From Thraustochytrium aureum (Eukaryota), in the NCBI GenBank assembly GCA_012862495.1, contig BLSG01000174.1, positions 7,890 through 61,695 on the forward strand: DNA of 53,806 nucleotides. The letters are read 5' to 3'. Shown here piece by piece: positions 11,832 through 37,901 of the stretch; position 1 is the first letter of the stretch; the number at the start of each line of letters is the position of its first letter. A program made the position numbers and the translations under genes. The notes beneath the pieces are model-generated. The model did not search any database, was not told the DNA's origin, and saw only the letters and a list, made by a program, of their open reading frames with translations.

Positions 11832-12870
11832 GGACCTCCACCGCGTATGGCTCGCCCCACGCTCTCTCCGACCGTCGGGCCCGTCGAGCTCGCTCGCACG
11901 CTGCGCATTTCTCTCGCAGCCCAGCGCGCTCTGGGCACAAGGTGTTAGCCCGCTTGCGCGTGAAGCGGGGCGGGGCGGCCGGCGTGTCCTTGCCGGTGCT
12001 GCTGGAGCTGCTGATGGCGTCGCGAATCGGGGTTCACCCGGCAGTGGTGGGGATCGGGTTGCGATTCGAATGGAGCTGCTGTGTCTTCTTTCGCCGTGTT
12101 GGTTCAGCGGTTGGCTGGCGAATGAAATGGTCGCCACATCGCGCTCGCAACGGCCCCAACACCTTTTTGATGGCGCGCCCAATTTATGCATGTAATGAAA
12201 CTCTTATCAATATTTTACTGCACAGATCTACTGGAAGTCCGTCCCAAACCGGTTGGAGAGGCTTCAGTAAATGGCGCAGAATGTACAAGACCGAACAGTA
12301 CTTCGGCCGACCAACCGTTGGGCCGTTCGCGCGCTGCTTGCGACGGCACGGCGCGGGCGGCTGCGCGGATCGAGGCGGTTGCGGGTCGGCTCGCACGCGC
12401 TGCTGCAGTGTTTGTCGAGACTCCAAGTTGCAACCGGTAGGTGGAGCGAGCACCACCTCGACAGAAACTGGTTTGGCAGTTGATCTGTTCTGATGGACAC
12501 AGCCATGGTGATTGATACTGGGCGAACTACGAACGGGGAAGAGCCTCGGGCAGTCTGTGACGGGACGGGCATCTCTGCGTGCGACGGAGGCCGCGTGCTG
12601 AAGAGCCCCCAGAACGCTACTACCTACCACATCTCTCGAGCGAGCGAGCTAAAGCGCTACGTGCCGGACTCGCAGCAAATCTCTGAAGATGGCCAAGTCG
12701 CCACCGGAGGGCACGGCCTGACACGAAACGTGAGTACTCGAGTACTTACGTGACAAACATGTTGGACGAAGATGATTTTTTGAGATTCGGGCTGCGCCAG
12801 GCCCAAACCATGACCGACGTGACCGAGCCGACAGGAAGAATCCTGGCGCCGCAGCGCTGCACAAAGCGAG

Positions 12871-27361: not shown

Positions 27362-28732
27362 TCACCTTCGCCCTTGACGACCGGCCGCTCGCCCCTGGCC
27401 CTCCTCGCTGGCCCTTGCTTGCTCTTCGGCACCGTCTTCCGCGGAGCCCTGCGCAGGGCAGCGCCCGCTGTGCTCTGCAGTGCCGCAACTTGAGCCACCT
27501 TGCCGCGTTGCGGCTGGTCCCGCGGGTGGCGCTCGCTGATCGAGCTGTCGAACAGCGCAATCATGCAGGTCCTCGCCGTGAAGGTCTTGGCCGCAGCCCC
27601 GCCGAATCGAGGCAAGACACCGAGCGTCGTCGTGTAGGTCGCGCGAAGGGAGGCGGCCCTCGGGCGGCAAGTCCCTGGCAAGAATGTGCGACAGCGTTAC
27701 GTTTGCGTTGGCGTACGACTCGCGCAGCGAGTAAGTGGGGCCTTCGGGACGAGGCTTGCCTTGCTCGAGCATGGAAAAGTAAAGCGTGGGCCGCGTCAGG
27801 TTCGAGCCGTTTGCAGACCCACGGTGGATCGTGCGCGAGTCGTAGATGGCAAGCGAGCCCTGCGGAACTGCGAGTCGCAAGAAGGGAGCCGAGAGCAGCA
27901 TCTCTTGCTCGTCGTCGCTGAGAAAGTGGTAGTGCGTGTGCGTCCCCGGGTAGACGTCGAACGGCGCCACGTTCTCGCCGACATCATCTAGGTAGATGAA
28001 CGCCGAGAAGAGCCGCGCCTCGTCGGTGAGCTGCGACACGTCCTCCATCCCCACGTCCCCGTGGAAATTCTGCCCCGGGGCGCCAGGGTAGGTCGTCAGC
28101 GACGAGAATTCCGTGAGCAAGGCGTCCGGCCCAAGCGTCGCTACGAGCGCCGGCTCGAGGAGCTGTACTGCGTGGCGGAGCATCTCGAACATCGCCCCGT
28201 GCAGCGGGAGCGGGTAGTCCTTCCGGTAACGGCGTTCGGCGATGCGGCCAAAGTTGACCCAGGGGTCGAGAATCTCCTCGTTCACCAGGGCGGCCACGTG
28301 GCGGCACTGCGCCGCGCTGAATACCGCGGGGAGAATGACAACGCCATGGGAGTTCAAACGCTCTGCGATTGCCTTCCAAGTCGCTTTGCCGAGCCGGCCC
28401 GTGAGCTTTTCTTCTGGGAGCAGGTGGACGCTCGCGAGCTCCAAGGCGACACCTGTTGCGCTGTGCTCGCGGTCCCAGGTGGTGTTGTCAAATCCGAGGG
28501 CCCCTTGCACGTCCTTGGCCATCAAAAGCTCACTCACTTTGTTTCGCATGAAGACCTGTCCCACTTTGGCCGCCTCCTCTGCGCTCAGGAGCGAAAACGT
28601 CTCCCGCATGAGCTTGCCGCGCATGGCCTCGCCGCTCTCCGTCTGCAGCAGCCTTAGCTGCGCCACGAGCGCTGCGTTGAGCGCCAGGGACGCAGCGCAG
28701 GTCGCCGCAACAAGCTTGGCCAAGCCGCCCAT
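27362..28732 (-). CDS. PhyH-family Fe(II)/2-oxoglutarate dioxygenase with N-terminal signal/anchor; 3' end uncertain
   Basis: LNSHGVVILPAVFS, PGAPGQNFHGD (HxD), FIYLDDV, VYPGTH, GSLAIYDSRTIHRGSAN and RPTLY. Hydrophobic N-terminus MGGLAKLVAATCAASLALNAALV. Confidence 0.85.
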   Translation of the reverse strand: MGGLAKLVAATCAASLALNAALVAQLRLLQTESGEAMRGKLMRETFSLLSAEEAAKVGQVFMRNKVSELLMAKDVQGALGFDNTTWDREHSATGVALELASVHLLPEEKLTGRLGKATWKAIAERLNSHGVVILPAVFSAAQCRHVAALVNEEILDPWVNFGRIAERRYRKDYPLPLHGAMFEMLRHAVQLLEPALVATLGPDALLTEFSSLTTYPGAPGQNFHGDVGMEDVSQLTDEARLFSAFIYLDDVGENVAPFDVYPGTHTHYHFLSDDEQEMLLSAPFLRLAVPQGSLAIYDSRTIHRGSANGSNLTRPTLYFSMLEQGKPRPEGPTYSLRESYANANVTLSHILARDLPPEGRLPSRDLHDDARCLASIRRGCGQDLHGEDLHDCAVRQLDQRAPPAGPAATRQGGSSCGTAEHSGRCPAQGSAEDGAEEQARASEEGQGRAAGRQGRR

Positions 28733-29392
28733 TCCGCCACAGCTCTGCCAGCCCAGCCAAGAGCTTCTCAGGTTGGCCAGTGCGCCAGTACGGGCGCAGC
28801 CGGCACCAGCTTTTCGNNNNNNNNNNNNNNNNNNNNNNNNNNNNNNNNNNNNNNNNNNNNNNNNNNNNNNNNNNNNNNNNNNNNNNNNNNNNNNNNNNNN
28901 NNNNNNNNNNNNNNNNNNNNNNNNNNNNNNNNNNNNNNNNNNNNNNNNNNNNNNNNNNNNNNNNNNNNNNNNNNNNNNNNNNNNNNNNNNNNNNNNNNNN
29001 NNNNNNNNNNNNNNNNNNNNNNNNNNNNNNNNNNNNNNNNNTTGCAGCTTCGAGTCTGTCCCTTGCAGAACAGAAAGCAACGGGCCGAAACGAACAGGAC
29101 AGAAACGTGAGTAACAGCAACTCGCAAGCCAAGCCATTGCAATGATGCCGCAGCAAGCGACGCAGACGATGCTGGCCAGGGCGTCAAAAGCGCAGGGTCT
29201 GGGGAAGGCGTGGCGCGATGGGGAGTAGAGGACGGCGGTCTCGAAGGAAAATAATAGGAGTACTGCAGAGAGTGCAAGCAAAACATTCTCAGTTGTCGGG
29301 TGCCGGCCGAGCCCACCGCGGCACCACGATCGCGCCTGGTGGCCGTGCCGCAAGGAGACAGGACGTGTGTTCTGTTGGGTAAAAGGCGGGCA

Positions 29393-32029
29393 TCATGCCT
29401 TTGGCGGCAGGATGTTGGCGGACGCTTTGAGCCAAAAGTTGAGCATGAGCGAGGCCTCGCTGTTGTAGACAACGTGCCACCACTCGTCCGGGTTGTAGAG
29501 CATCTCGCCGGGACCCACGTCCAAGATGATCGACTCGGGCAGACCCATTTTGAAGGCCGGGAGCTGCTTGGCGCGTTCCTTGTTGTAGTCGTTCGGGTCA
29601 ATGAGCTGCGCCCAAATCACAACCCCGGCCTTCTTGCCGTACATGAACGGCCGGTTTCGCGGCGGGAAGAGGTGCCACCGCTTTGAACCAAGCACCTGGT
29701 AGGCCAAGTTGCCCTTGTTGGTGTGGTCGCAGTGAAGCGAGGAGAGCGAGCCCTTGGGCCCGAGCCACATGGAGGGACGCTGGAACGAGCTCTGGCGAAC
29801 CCACTCCGGGTACCTAAAGTCGTACTCCTCCATAGCCGCCTTGTCAAGCTTGTTGTTGCCAGCGTAGACCGGGAGCGCGTTGGGGTCATGCGGCGGAGCC
29901 TCGTTCGTCTCGCGGAAGGAGCCGTCGGCTGTCTTGGCCACGATGTTGGCGTTCTGCAGGTAATCGGGCAACGCCTGGCGCTCGAACTTGCGCGTTCTGA
30001 CGGTGGAATAGTTTTTGCGCACCACGAGCTCGGTCTCCTTGTTGTTGTTGAGGAACGTGACCCAATCGCCCTCCCAGATCTTGTGTTCGCTCGTGAGCGT
30101 GATCTTGTGAGGGGACTGCCGCTTTGTGAAATAGGTCGCGATCGTCTGAAAGTTGATCCGGTTCGAGGGCACATTGCCGATGGAGCAAAAGCAGCTCGAG
30201 CAGGCCGTGGGAGAGGAGCAGATGTGGCCGCCCTTGTCGGTGCCTTGCGCTGACGCAACGATCTCGTTCTTGAACACCGAGTTGAGCACCGCATTGCCCA
30301 GGAAAAGAGCCGTCAGGCTGCTACTGCCAGGGCGGGCAGTGTTCGCAGGGGCTCCCAAAGTTGGAGCAAACATGTCGAGCGCGGAGAGAGAGACGTGATT
30401 ATAGAGCTGGATCGGCGCGGGCGGCTCAGTGGCCATATCGTCAGGGCTGATGCTGCCGACGGCCATGGCTCGCGCATTCTTATACCCATGCTGGCGCAGG
30501 ATGCGGACCGCCTTGTTGGCGTTTGCGCCGCTCGAGCAGAACACCACAATCTTCGTGTCCAAGTGCAGGTTTGGCGCCCAGCCGTTCTGCATCTTTAAGA
30601 GCGGCAAATGGACCGAGTACCGGTTGAAGTATTGCAGCTGCTTTTCCTCGAACGGCTTGTTGTCATTGCGCACATCGACCAAGACGTATTTGGCGGCCTG
30701 CTGCTTGAGCTCGTTGATCTTGATCGTGAACCGTTGCGCATCGGCAGACGCCTCGGCGGCGCCCGCTCCTGCAGACCCTTTCAGGCCTGCACCGGCGGCC
30801 CCTTTCAGACCCGCACCGGCGGCTCCTTTCAGGCCGGCGAGCGCGGCGCCCTTCGGCCCAGGAAGCGCCCGCCGGACGAAGAGCGCGTTTTGCTTTTCGG
30901 CGAGGACGCGGCGGATCTCTTTCGCGGTGGCTTCGTTCGTCTTTATCGCCGAGGTGCTTTGCTCGAGGTCGAAGAAGGGCTGCGTGGTCCACACCACGTT
31001 GACGCTTTCGACAGCTAGCCGGCTGCCGAGGCGCAAGAGCAGGCGCGCGAAGCCGATCTCGCGGCCCTTGTCAGCGCTCCAGTTGACCACGATCGTAACA
31101 GCAACATTGGGCGCGTGCGCCTTGCTTTCGACGAATTCGGCGAGCCGCTCTTCAAGCGCCTCCTGCGCCTGCAAGCCGAGAGGCTGCGGGACCTCGAGGT
31201 GGTGAAACAGGTCGCTCATTTGCGCTGCCTCGGCAAAAGCCGAGCCCGTGTCGCCGTCCAGGAAAACCACGAGGCGCTGGAGGGCCTGGTCGTCCCTCAC
31301 CCACAACTCGTCGCCCGTAAACTGGTACAGCCAGCAGTTGTGCGGGTTCCAGACCAGGCCAGGGCTGCCGTCCTCGCCGAGCGCTCCCGTTGCCGTCCAA
31401 GCCCCTCCCGCGTAAAACACCTTGTTGGCTTGCTTGACAGAGCAGTGGCGGAGCGCGGGGCACGTGTGCCCAACCATGGCCTTGAACTCTTCAAGAGTGA
31501 AGAAGGGCGTCGACGCGTCGATGCCCCACTCGCGCTGGACCTGGGCTCGGCGCGTGGGCGCCTCGGCGAGCATCTCGTCCCAGTTAACCACAGACCGTGC
31601 CGCCTCGCTGCGGCTCTTGTCATTCGTCTCCACCAGGATGGCTTTTGGCGCGCCGTCCTCGGGGCCGCTGTCGCGCGCGGCCAAGCTGGCACGCTGCGCC
31701 TCCAGCGCAGCCTCGGCAAGCCGCAGTTCCTCTGCGGCTTGCGCGTTTTCCATGTGATCGGCTTCCGCATCTTGGCTCTCCTGGTGAGTCAGGGGCTGGC
31801 CATTCAAGATTTCCTGGGTCTCTGCGTCGTCCACGGCAGCCGCCTCCTCAGCGGGCGAGCTGCTCTTGCTTCGCAGAGCGCTGCTCCGCTGCGCGGCGAG
31901 TCTGATCTCGTCGGCCTTTTGGGCGAGCCATCCACGCCGCGCCGAGGTCCCGTCGTGATTCATCGAGTCCATGGTAAACCTGTGCAGCAAGACCATGGCG
32001 AGAGTCCCAAGAACCATGCAAATCACCAT
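29393..32029 (-). CDS. Multidomain membrane-anchored protein: TM, SGNH/TBL-like region, rhodanese, JmjC (cupin_8) hydroxylase
   Basis: JmjC: MWLGPKGSLSSLHCD..LAYQVLGSKRWHLFPP..VGPGEMLYNPDEWWHVV. Rhodanese: VLVDVR..KIVVFCSSGANANKAVRILRQHGYKN. N-terminal hydrophobic helix. The start may extend into the gap. Confidence 0.85.
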   Translation of the reverse strand: MVICMVLGTLAMVLLHRFTMDSMNHDGTSARRGWLAQKADEIRLAAQRSSALRSKSSSPAEEAAAVDDAETQEILNGQPLTHQESQDAEADHMENAQAAEELRLAEAALEAQRASLAARDSGPEDGAPKAILVETNDKSRSEAARSVVNWDEMLAEAPTRRAQVQREWGIDASTPFFTLEEFKAMVGHTCPALRHCSVKQANKVFYAGGAWTATGALGEDGSPGLVWNPHNCWLYQFTGDELWVRDDQALQRLVVFLDGDTGSAFAEAAQMSDLFHHLEVPQPLGLQAQEALEERLAEFVESKAHAPNVAVTIVVNWSADKGREIGFARLLLRLGSRLAVESVNVVWTTQPFFDLEQSTSAIKTNEATAKEIRRVLAEKQNALFVRRALPGPKGAALAGLKGAAGAGLKGAAGAGLKGSAGAGAAEASADAQRFTIKINELKQQAAKYVLVDVRNDNKPFEEKQLQYFNRYSVHLPLLKMQNGWAPNLHLDTKIVVFCSSGANANKAVRILRQHGYKNARAMAVGSISPDDMATEPPAPIQLYNHVSLSALDMFAPTLGAPANTARPGSSSLTALFLGNAVLNSVFKNEIVASAQGTDKGGHICSSPTACSSCFCSIGNVPSNRINFQTIATYFTKRQSPHKITLTSEHKIWEGDWVTFLNNNKETELVVRKNYSTVRTRKFERQALPDYLQNANIVAKTADGSFRETNEAPPHDPNALPVYAGNNKLDKAAMEEYDFRYPEWVRQSSFQRPSMWLGPKGSLSSLHCDHTNKGNLAYQVLGSKRWHLFPPRNRPFMYGKKAGVVIWAQLIDPNDYNKERAKQLPAFKMGLPESIILDVGPGEMLYNPDEWWHVVYNSEASLMLNFWLKASANILPPKA
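30765..30860 (-). repeat. In-frame 24-bp coding repeat (AAGAGLKG, about 3-4 copies)
   Basis: GAALAGLKG AAGAGLKG AAGAGLKG SAGAG linker just before the rhodanese domain. Confidence 0.85.
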
Positions 32030-34343: not shown

Positions 34344-35244
34344 AGTGCAGGTTGGCGCTCGTTTCTACCAACTCCACGGGGGTGTGGGGCCGGCCTCGAA
34401 TCTACCTACAGCAGCGTCTTTTCGCCGCGCGAGCTCCTCTCGCGAATGATGGCCAGGCGCGCTCGAGCTANNNNNNNNNNNNNNNNNNNNNNNNNNNNNN
34501 NNNNNNNNNNNNNNNNNNNNNNNNNNNNNNNNNNNNNNNNNNNNNNNNNNNNNNNNNNNNNNNNNNNNNNNNNNNNNNNNNNNNNNNNNNNNNNNNNNNN
34601 NNNNNNNNNNNNNNNNNNNNNNNNNNNNNNNNNNNNNNNNNNNNNNNNNNNNNNNNNNNNNNNNNNNNNNNNNNNNNNNNNNNNNNNNNNNNNNNNNNNN
34701 NNNNNNNNNNNNNNNNNNNNNNNNNNNNNNNNNNNNNNNNNNNNNGCTGCTTTGACAACAGCCTGCGTCCCGATCAGCCAGCCACCGGAGGTGAGCGCAT
34801 GGGCACTTACTCACAGTTCGAGGTTGAGGCAACATCAATTCGACCCTTACTTTTTCTTTCAAGAAATGCTACAAAGAAAGGCCCGGAAAACGAGATCGCA
34901 GTGCGCGACCAACGACACACGTCTCGGCGCAGCGGCGCAAACGACAAAACCTTAGCAGCCGCAACCACAGTGCCGAGCACCAGAGCTTTTGAAACCAAAT
35001 TGGACCTCGTCTCGCGCGCCTACATCGCCAAAACCTCGAGCACGAACGACAAACGCATCGTCGTTGCGCGCACGTAAGCTTTAACGGGGCAATCAGGCGT
35101 TGAGCTCCACGAGCCTTGACGATGCGGCCAGACGGTGTCGCCCTCCGGGCGGCCTCGCGCGCCATCCCGTCAGGGCCCCGGAGTTCTGGCGCAGTCCGTC
35201 CGCCAACCTCACAAGGGTTTGAAAGCCAAACCCAAGAAGCGACC

Positions 35245-37344
35245 TTACAAGCGGAACACGTTGCCGCTCAGCTTCTTCTTCCAATCGGCCTGGCGCGCGA
35301 CCTCGGCCGGAAGCCCCAGGATTGCTGCACGAGCTCGCAAGTGGTTGCGCAGCGCGAGCAGGACAAAGACGATGTGCGTCTGCGCCATCACGAAACGCAG
35401 CAGCAGGGCCCTGATCTCCGCCAGCGACACAGGGGCCTCGGCCACCTCCCCTGCACCTGCAAACAAAAGCTCGGACATCAGGCCCTGCGCAGTGTAGATC
35501 AAGTCTATACTGTACAGCGTGGAGCCAATCCAAAAGTCGCGCCATGCGAACTCGGGGTAGACCGGGAACCTGGAAAAAAGCACGAGCATGTGCGAGAGCT
35601 CGAGGGAGAGCAACACGGTCCGCGGCTCGTAGGCCTCGCCAAGCTGGATCGCGCAAGCACATCTGAGCGCCAAGTAGAGCAGAAAGAAGGCCCCCAGGCG
35701 CCACGAGTCGATCGAGGCCGTTGAGAGCAGCTGCGCCTTGGAGCGGCGCAAGTTCCAGTCCTGATTGTACGGCCACCGCACGAAAGAGTTTACCTCGTGC
35801 ACGCCCGGCCCGCAATCGGTCATCGCTGTCGCGATGGGCTCGCAATCCGTGTGGCGCGAGTCGCCAGCCACCGCAAGGCCGTCGCCGTTTCCGGACGGCA
35901 TGAGGTGGTCGCCGCAGCGGATCGGCCCCACGCACCGCACGGGGACCTGCCCAATAAAAGCCACCAAGCGGCCCTCGGCCTCTTTGCCGCCGAGCGGCAC
36001 GCCGGCCGCAACCGAAGGGGTCGTCGAGACGACCATGATCGGGCCCGCCCCCGAGGTGTCGAGCGTCAGCCGCTGCTCGGGCGAGCGCAGCTGCACAACG
36101 TGACCGGCTCGGATGTCCTCTTTACTATCGAGGCACGGGAACCACTCTGCATAGTCTGCAGCGTTGGGCGGCGTGATAATCTGGCCGTGGATCCCACCGT
36201 CCACCGTCAGTTTGCCGCGCACGTGGAGGTTTCTTGCCGAAAGGTCGCCGTTGACCACACAGTCCCCGTTCACCGAGATGCTGTGGTCAAAGATGACCGA
36301 GCCCGCAACCTGCCTTGGTGCGGCGAGTGCGCTCTGCTCGACGGCGGGCAGGGCGCCTGGCGCCGCACCCTCGTTTGACCCGTCCGAGCGCGGGGAGGGC
36401 GCCTGGTTCTCGCGGCTCGCCCCGTCCTCCTGCGAGTCGGTCTCGGATGTGTCAGAGAGGCTCCCACGGGAAACAGACGACGCGCAGGAGGTTGACGACG
36501 AGGAAAAGGAGCCGCAAGCCAACGTGTCTGGCGCGGCCGGGGCCTCGGCGGCGCGGCGCCTCTTTTTCACAGTGTGAACTTGCCCGAGTTCAGGCGCTGG
36601 CCAGAATTGCACCATCGATGGTGCGCCGAAGACGATGTGGCTGCGGCAGTCAAACTTGCTGACCGCCGTCTCGCTCGTGGGTCGCTGGATGAGCGTGTAC
36701 CACCTGCCTGCGAACCCGTGCTCGGCGGTGGACTTTGGGTTGCGGGCCTTGCGCGTCATGTTGCGGGCGACGACGCCCTTGCGCAGTCCGTGCCGCGGCG
36801 ACCACCACAGCTCGCCGTTCGAGAACCCCTGGTACTTGACCGCGATGAGGGACTCGGGGCTGCCGAGGCGCCGCTCCTTTTCAGTCTCCGACAGCGTGTG
36901 CTTCAGCGTCGGGGTCACGAAAAAGCACCTCGTCGTTGGCGAGATCGGCGACGCTTGCGGCCTCTGCGGGAGTCTAGAGTCAAAGTCGCCCGCTTCGGCG
37001 CGCTCCAGCAGCTCGATAACGTGCTCGAAAGTGAGCCTTGCGACGCCCGCGTCCGGGTCGCGGACGCCGCACCAGGCGTCGTTGTCCTCCTCCCCGCTCG
37101 CGTCAAACTTGGCCTCGAAAACCTCCTCTTCCGGCTCGGCGGCGCTGTCCAGTCCTCGGATGTCGCGCTTGCCGACACCGGCTGCAAGGTCCTCTGAGAA
37201 CAGGTCCATCATCATCATCATGCCTTCGTCGCCAAAGTCCTCGGCGTGCAGCCCTGCGGTTTGCTTTTCGAGCCCTTCCAGTTTGACGTCCACCTCGCGC
37301 CCGCCGCGCTCCCTGAACGCGGGCTCGCCTTGCGCAGGCCACAT
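35245..37344 (-). CDS. Putative self-cleaving membrane-tethered regulator: globular N-domain, NLS, beta-repeat, Peptidase G2-like intramolecular chaperone, 3-4 TM helices (699 aa)
   Basis: Uninterrupted frame from ATG 37344 (MWPAQG). KKRRR at 36567-36553. ISVNGDCVVNGDLSARNLHVRGKLTVDGGIHG precedes ADYAEWF (36159-36139), followed by VVSTTP and VAFIGQVPVRCVGPIRCGDHLMPS. The C-terminus is hydrophobic. Confidence 0.8.
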   Translation of the reverse strand: MWPAQGEPAFRERGGREVDVKLEGLEKQTAGLHAEDFGDEGMMMMMDLFSEDLAAGVGKRDIRGLDSAAEPEEEVFEAKFDASGEEDNDAWCGVRDPDAGVARLTFEHVIELLERAEAGDFDSRLPQRPQASPISPTTRCFFVTPTLKHTLSETEKERRLGSPESLIAVKYQGFSNGELWWSPRHGLRKGVVARNMTRKARNPKSTAEHGFAGRWYTLIQRPTSETAVSKFDCRSHIVFGAPSMVQFWPAPELGQVHTVKKRRRAAEAPAAPDTLACGSFSSSSTSCASSVSRGSLSDTSETDSQEDGASRENQAPSPRSDGSNEGAAPGALPAVEQSALAAPRQVAGSVIFDHSISVNGDCVVNGDLSARNLHVRGKLTVDGGIHGQIITPPNAADYAEWFPCLDSKEDIRAGHVVQLRSPEQRLTLDTSGAGPIMVVSTTPSVAAGVPLGGKEAEGRLVAFIGQVPVRCVGPIRCGDHLMPSGNGDGLAVAGDSRHTDCEPIATAMTDCGPGVHEVNSFVRWPYNQDWNLRRSKAQLLSTASIDSWRLGAFFLLYLALRCACAIQLGEAYEPRTVLLSLELSHMLVLFSRFPVYPEFAWRDFWIGSTLYSIDLIYTAQGLMSELLFAGAGEVAEAPVSLAEIRALLLRFVMAQTHIVFVLLALRNHLRARAAILGLPAEVARQADWKKKLSGNVFRL

Positions 37345-37395
37345 TTTCGTCGTCGCGCAGTCGGCCGGCTGGGACTGGAGGGTGGGAGGCTTGGG

Positions 37396-37447
37396 GGCTG
37401 GCCGGCTGGCTGGCCGACTGACCGGCTGGCTGGCTGGCCGACTGACC

Positions 37448-37481
<34 letters not shown>

Positions 37482-37530
37482 CTGGTTGGCTCGCTGGCTG
37501 GCTGGCCGGCTGGCTCGCTGGCTGGCTCGC
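37396..37530. repeat. Imperfect (GCTG/CAGC)n tetranucleotide microsatellite
   Basis: Run of ggctggctggct... just upstream of the 37344 ATG. It accounts for the spurious ASQP repeats in the ORF track. Confidence 0.9.
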
Positions 37531-37901
37531 CGCGTCTGGAACTGCTGCTGCCCGGTTCGGTCTCTGTCGCAGGATTGGGAGACTGGNNNNNNNNNNNNNN
37601 NNNNNNNNNNNNNNNNNNNNNNNNNNNNNNNNNNNNNNNNNNNNNNNNNNNNNNNNNNNNNNNNNNNNNNNNNNNNNNNNNNNNNNNNNNNNNNNNNNNN
37701 NGGCCGGCTGGCAGGCAGCGGGGGTGTGCCGCTGCGCCCTGGTGAGAGAGTCGCCAGGCTGAATGGTCGCTTGCGCCACTTTGTTGTTCTCCGTGTACCA
37801 GGAAGGAGGCCCTGAGGAGGCCCGTGTTTCTGCAAGTCTCCTACCTACACGTGCTTTTTCAGCACCTGCTCTGCACGAAACAAAGCACGGACAGCGTGAG
37901 G

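Follow-up and report, generated by a model that had tools for sequence, protein, structure and literature searches.

A stramenopile protein predicted to unite a NAC-like domain, a Peptidase_G2 chaperone and a hydrophobic tail in a MYRF-like membrane-tethered factor

Contig BLSG01000174.1 of Thraustochytrium aureum was analysed over a stretch of 53,806 nucleotides (the window), which harbors on its reverse strand an open reading frame (ORF) for a protein of 699 residues (Table 1), obtained by stop-free translation of 37344-35245. An initial annotation made from the letters alone interpreted it as a self-cleaving, membrane-bound transcription factor analogous to MYRF, and the features listed there are indeed present: an acidic N-terminus, a globular domain, KKRRR, a serine-rich linker, beta repeats, ADYAEWF and GQVPV. 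We consider it probable, by analogy, that the protein is a membrane-tethered transcription factor that trimerises, cuts itself at A396/D397 and releases its N-terminal half for the nucleus and DNA.

The reading frame was assessed with variant and coverage data from contigs of three public runs of a single study, which we guess to be RNA. One contig is gapless across the ORF, with no joints listed, and both indels fall outside the frame. Synonymous changes make up 16 of the 21 in-ORF variants against 25% expected (p=1e-6), and this excess indicates that the 699-residue frame is under purifying selection. Coverage of the ORF by the three runs is unbroken, whereas that of a control stretch is patchy (6, 24 and 17 of 30 bins); this does not prove transcription. 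Translation may start at M1 or in the M42-M46 run. A longer in-frame reading upstream passes through a (GGCT/GGCC)-type microsatellite at 37390-37545, just 5' of the start codon, and then an N gap; the contigs end at 37391.

Table 1. Features of the 699-residue protein and their positions in the window
Feature	Residues	Position	Strand	Basis
Whole ORF, intron-free reading	1-699	35245..37344	-	gapless contig 35181-37391; 16/21 variants synonymous
Acidic N-terminal region, candidate activation region	1-100	37045..37344	-	composition; poorly conserved, unaligned in relatives
NAC/WOPR/Ssr4-like alpha+beta domain, predicted DNA-binding domain of a non-Pfam family	100-252	36589..37047	-	
KKRRR, candidate nuclear localisation signal	260-264	36553..36567	-	sequence
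Ser-rich linker	265-345	36310..36552	-	length varies among relatives
(V/L)xVxG beta-strand repeats, predicted triple-beta-helix stalk	346-395	36160..36309	-	conserved glycines; structural alignment to gp12
A396/D397-Y-A-E400, predicted scissile bond and predicted catalytic glutamate	396-400	36145..36159	-	register with gp12
Peptidase_G2 / gp12 D4-type chaperone	397-525	35770..36156	-	profile, structure, cleavage register
Helix after chaperone, leading to hydrophobic tail	528-543	35716..35763	-	model secondary structure
Hydrophobic tail, two clear and two marginal candidate membrane helices	550-665	35350..35697	-	Kyte-Doolittle windows

Considering the chaperone domain, ADYAEWF begins at residue 396 and GQVPV at 465, and the assignment to Peptidase_G2 (G2) is borne out by profile, structure and cleavage register alike. 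The support comes from the family profile and the fold, whereas the protein on its own scores 17.9 bits against PF11962, below the curated cut-off of 25 bits. A PF11962 match at E<=0.5 was returned for 23 of 35 eukaryote-type relatives, with two passing the cut-off, and P0061 passes with 26.1 bits. Single-protein phmmer against PDB sequences yielded no match, the family profile alone matching, and NCBIfam gave no match. In HHalign, the eukaryote-only alignment hits phi29 gp12 weakly (probability 36%, E 4e-4), while addition of bacterial relatives raises this to a probability of 90% (E 2e-6). Structurally, the modelled domain has the gp12 D4 fold, and D397 and E400 of the D-[YF]-A-E motif correspond to gp12 D692 and E695 in both alignment and structure. 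Peptidase_S74 (PF13884), which the initial annotation had set apart as unrelated, gave no Pfam row in the protein or the relatives scanned; a G2-type domain starting D-Y-A-E sits at that position. MYRF/endoNF chaperone entries are likewise absent among the listed fold matches.

It is rather unlikely that the G2 domain only trimerises, or cuts without release, and that an outside protease or signal frees the factor, in the way plant membrane-bound NAC factors are freed by outside proteases. The tandem beta-tulip fold does occur in non-cleaving decoration proteins, release of gp12 is reported to be ATP-dependent, and a 45-residue gp12 insert is lacking in this domain. On the other hand, the exact D-x-A-E register, with D and E both kept in 59/59 alignment rows and D397 aligning where the gp12 fragment begins, argues for self-release, as does the structure comparison, where gp12 D4 ranks above decoration proteins by about 3 Z units.

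The N-terminal half starts with an acidic region (residues 1-100 with 27% D+E and a net charge of -17), followed by a globular domain at about residues 100-252 that was modelled with a pLDDT of 95. The domain had been left unnamed in the initial annotation, and its nearest solved folds, NAC, Ssr4 and WOPR, lend support to the transcription factor reading. It displays the helix followed by a twisted antiparallel sheet that is common to the NAC/WOPR/CG-1/Ssr4 subgroup of the WRKY-GCM1 clan, and 113 of the 153 residues of the model align to ORE1 NAC. It differs from this subgroup in sequence, with 9-14% identity and no Pfam match but LGFP alone (E 0.09). The NAC (NAM, PF02365), CG-1 and WOPR profiles were not among the 25 of 39 Pfam families listed for 53 members at E<=10, and no NDT80 row was found at E<=1 for the 699-residue protein. 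Basic residues are conserved at R128, R194, R198, R201, R221 and R234. N176-x-x-x-W180 is also conserved and resembles, by eye only, the DxxxW motif that PMC9252788 names in the WOPR recognition loop. From the models, we regard this N-domain as a predicted sequence-specific DNA-binding domain.

The alignment profile of the N-domain matched no DNA-binding protein among PDB sequences, ESM Atlas gave no usable match for residues 95-260, and Foldseek against viral models returned nothing at E<=0.001, the top match being weak (PV1 of European wheat striate mosaic virus; E 0.11, probability 0.96, TM 0.53). A sequence search with residues 100-252 yielded no match and missed the known relatives too, and no homologues were found among proteins of 1783-5000 aa; both searches are uninformative on the wider distribution of the domain.

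The protein may also self-cleave and free a trimer whose NAC-like domain, instead of binding specific DNA sequences, acts on chromatin or binds RNA or protein, a role put forward for Ssr4, although we judge this improbable. NAC outranks Ssr4 in the fold comparison, several arginines are near-invariant in both architectures that carry the domain (the second is described below), and transcription factors typically have such basic runs and flanks that are acidic or rich in Q/H/P. Of 55 relatives, 33 have a K/R run of at least four ahead of G2, compared with 2.9 expected by shuffling. Between the two domains, S+T make up 25% of linker residues 253-345, and the beta repeats that follow retain conserved glycines (G360, G377, G383 and G387). 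These repeats align weakly with the stretch ahead of the Dpo31 chaperone (E 1.1), and model residues 387-396 align to gp12 683-691.

The tail was assessed in 19-residue windows with a Kyte-Doolittle (KD) cut-off of 1.6. Two clear segments, at 550 (1.86) and 647 (2.06), uphold part of the three to four hydrophobic helices initially proposed; the other two are marginal and weaker than implied there, at 577 (1.46) and 605 (0.75 here, 1.31 averaged over 11 close relatives). As no hydrophobic or signal peptide-like stretch occurs before residue 520, the N-terminal part probably faces the cytosol, judging by sequence. A soluble domain formed by the C-terminal helices, or a luminal or cell-surface N-terminal part, and hence no membrane-released nuclear factor, would fit the two segments only that reach 1.6 and the secreted look of close bacterial G2 proteins with their N-terminal hydrophobic leaders, but is very improbable given that no window exceeds 1.25 before residue 520, that pelagophyte-type relatives have 3-5 segments at KD 2-3, and that among 45 relatives with a tail of at least 80 aa the cut-off is reached after G2 in 41 and before it in two.

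Relatives have exchanged the part that follows G2: P0063 carries Cys-rich repeats there, P0070 a PLAC8-like part and P0106 a long multi-helix tail. The tail-less relatives P0011, P0013 and P0020 were considered as natural soluble forms; for P0013, a 623-aa member of its cluster does have the tail, so that at least this one is a truncated record.

Next, the distribution of the architecture was investigated. Among 7992 candidates scored, 44 relatives were found at E<=0.001, the best being 39-43% identical over 86-95% of the length. Named sources include Hondaea fermentalgiana, Mucochytrium quahogii, Aplanochytrium, Aureococcus anophagefferens and Aureoumbra lagunensis, which we take to belong to the Labyrinthulomycetes and Pelagophyceae; most rows are without an organism name. 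Scanning 1.84 billion representatives with HMMER produced 1873 matches at E<=0.001, 150 of them listed. The search for the same domain order in other protists, as initially suggested, was fruitful: in the 172 proteins collected, N-domain and G2 are both present in 55 and the N-domain comes first in 55/55, as counted with profiles built from these same proteins. Both domains were found in order at 7 of 45 metagenome loci. The N-domain/G2/tail architecture is conserved in stramenopiles. The Hondaea homologue P0002 bears the name 'F-box/WD repeat-containing protein 7', which apparently stems from a WD-like N-terminal fragment; this is probably a fused gene model with a misleading name.

In a FastTree analysis of 157 G2 regions, all 54 rows with both domains (N+G2) fall inside one 70-row clade (support 0.89), the remaining 16 rows having no N-domain detected and being mostly fragments. 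IQ-TREE (LG+G4, 148 columns; 28 N+G2 and 28 G2-only rows) places the N+G2 rows on one side of a branch with 98/95 support. The nearest tree rows of the 699-residue protein are from Hondaea and Mucochytrium. By these trees, the G2 part of the N+G2 proteins is one clade apart from the sampled bacterial-type G2 proteins, and a single fusion event would be compatible with them, the root not being fixed.

The initial annotation saw the recruitment of a phage chaperone, which holds for the type of domain, gp12-like G2, and less surely for a direct phage donor. The closest named G2-only proteins come from Verrucomicrobiota and Bacteroidota. With the G2 region as query, tblastn matched none of 50,697 phage records, viral contigs contributed 0 relatives among 52 pattern matches, and the PHROGs match is weak (E 0.013). 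With the nearest named relatives bacterial and no close match in the phage and viral collections, a bacterial route is as likely as a direct phage route, and the direct donor may have been a bacterium rather than a phage.

For cleavage, trimerisation, membrane topology, nuclear entry and DNA binding, we infer the behavior of the protein from its analogues gp12, Dpo31 and MYRF. The tail would insert in a membrane, probably that of the endoplasmic reticulum, leaving residues 1-545 cytosolic. Three G2 domains would then come together and twist the beta repeats into a stalk of three strands, and E400 would promote the cut before D397, yielding a trimer of 396-residue chains. The stalk would hold three NAC-like domains together on flexible linkers, with KKRRR importing them. 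The trimer would recognise repeated DNA sites with avidity, and its acidic N-terminus would activate. G2 and the tail would remain in the membrane, where the variable multi-helix part may set the timing of cleavage or release.

Animal MYRF and MrfA of Dictyostelium are self-cleaving membrane-bound transcription factors, as described in PMC3742443, PMC8326128 and PMC3828593. They have in common with the 699-residue protein the order of DNA-binding-type domain, linker, beta-helical stalk, phage-type intramolecular chaperone, helix and membrane anchor, and a cut, predicted here, at the first residue of the chaperone. The MYRF chaperone, too, is missing a loop present in its phage counterpart, as the chaperone studied here is missing an insert of gp12. 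Congruent with the MYRF-like logic initially proposed, the parts occur in that order in the family. However, the chaperone is G2/gp12-type with D-x-A-E rather than a Ser-Lys dyad domain, the N-domain is NAC-like in the model rather than Ndt80-type, the tail comprises several candidate helices, and the protein occurs in stramenopiles. The protein thus would work like MYRF/MrfA, by analogy, but is not a member of that family, having neither an Ndt80-type domain nor a Ser-Lys chaperone.

Compared to the D4 domains of phi29 gp12 and Carin-1 Dpo31 (PF11962), the chaperone is about 45 residues shorter and is followed by a hydrophobic tail, whereas the phage chaperone ends the chain, and its upstream cargo is a nuclear-type domain instead of a tailspike enzyme. 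Membrane-anchored forms also exist among plant NACs, such as NTM1. Plant membrane NACs are freed by outside proteases, whereas here the chaperone predicted to cut is built in.

The initial annotation knew of no description of this architecture, and full-text literature, subscription journals not covered, gave none for a eukaryotic G2 protein or the NAC-like/G2/tail order among the papers listed, as judged by listings and the beginnings of abstracts. In one such listing, the papers with a G2 term include none on a eukaryotic G2 protein by title, and in a vertebrate-centred 2026 survey of membrane-bound regulators (PMC13294678), the main text lacks 'peptidase' and 'stramenopil'. We lean, by a modest measure, towards stramenopiles having independently built a MYRF-like self-releasing trimeric factor from different parts: a glutamate-based, possibly ATP-gated phage-type chaperone and an undescribed NAC-fold DNA-binding family, fused once and early, kept in labyrinthulomycetes and pelagophytes, with a variable multi-helix membrane module as sensor. 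MYRF/MrfA is the textbook case of a membrane transcription factor that reuses a phage chaperone to release itself. If a second one, unrelated in chaperone and in DNA-binding fold, does the same, the design is repeatable and not a one-off, and it could be asked why factors of this kind take the route through a membrane at all, a question that the MrfA paper (PMC3828593) leaves open. It would also add a candidate stramenopile transcription factor family missed by Pfam, extend the NAC-like fold beyond plants and fungi, and provide a short glutamate-type self-cleaving trimerisation module from a eukaryote as a possible protein-engineering tool.

The second architecture carrying the NAC-like domain is soluble; its middle is short or rich in Q/H/P, and it has a conserved domain of ~200 aa (P0075-P0078, P0081, P0089, P0092, P0094 and P0138). 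The latter domain has no Pfam or PDB sequence match; a PAS-like look, noted by eye only, was not confirmed. Two Hondaea members have consecutive accessions and contigs of equal length, and are thus probably a tandem pair.

Regarding G2-only proteins, P0140 adjoins the N+G2 clade on a long branch and is possibly another eukaryotic use of G2; by eye it has an N-terminal CxxC...CxxC, a short heptad repeat ahead of DLAE, a basic run and IQ-like repeats, with no Pfam match. The bacterial-looking P0087, P0134 and P0169 combine G2 with a stretch resembling a coiled coil and with a hydrophobic anchor at the C-terminus, and are not sister to the N+G2 family in the tree, so G2 with a membrane anchor exists outside that family too.

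Scanning of nine window ORFs identified a kinase, a WD40 protein, a DENN protein and a myosin with MyTH4, by which the window is eukaryotic. A rhodanese and JmjC/Cupin_8 fusion (29393-32029, reverse strand) and a PhyH-family dioxygenase (27362-29137, reverse strand) are also present, neither with a shown link to the 699-residue gene. Finally, a short element at 12570-12613 stands out in each of the three runs by its high depth and by several loose ends, and is probably a repeat common to many transcripts or loci.
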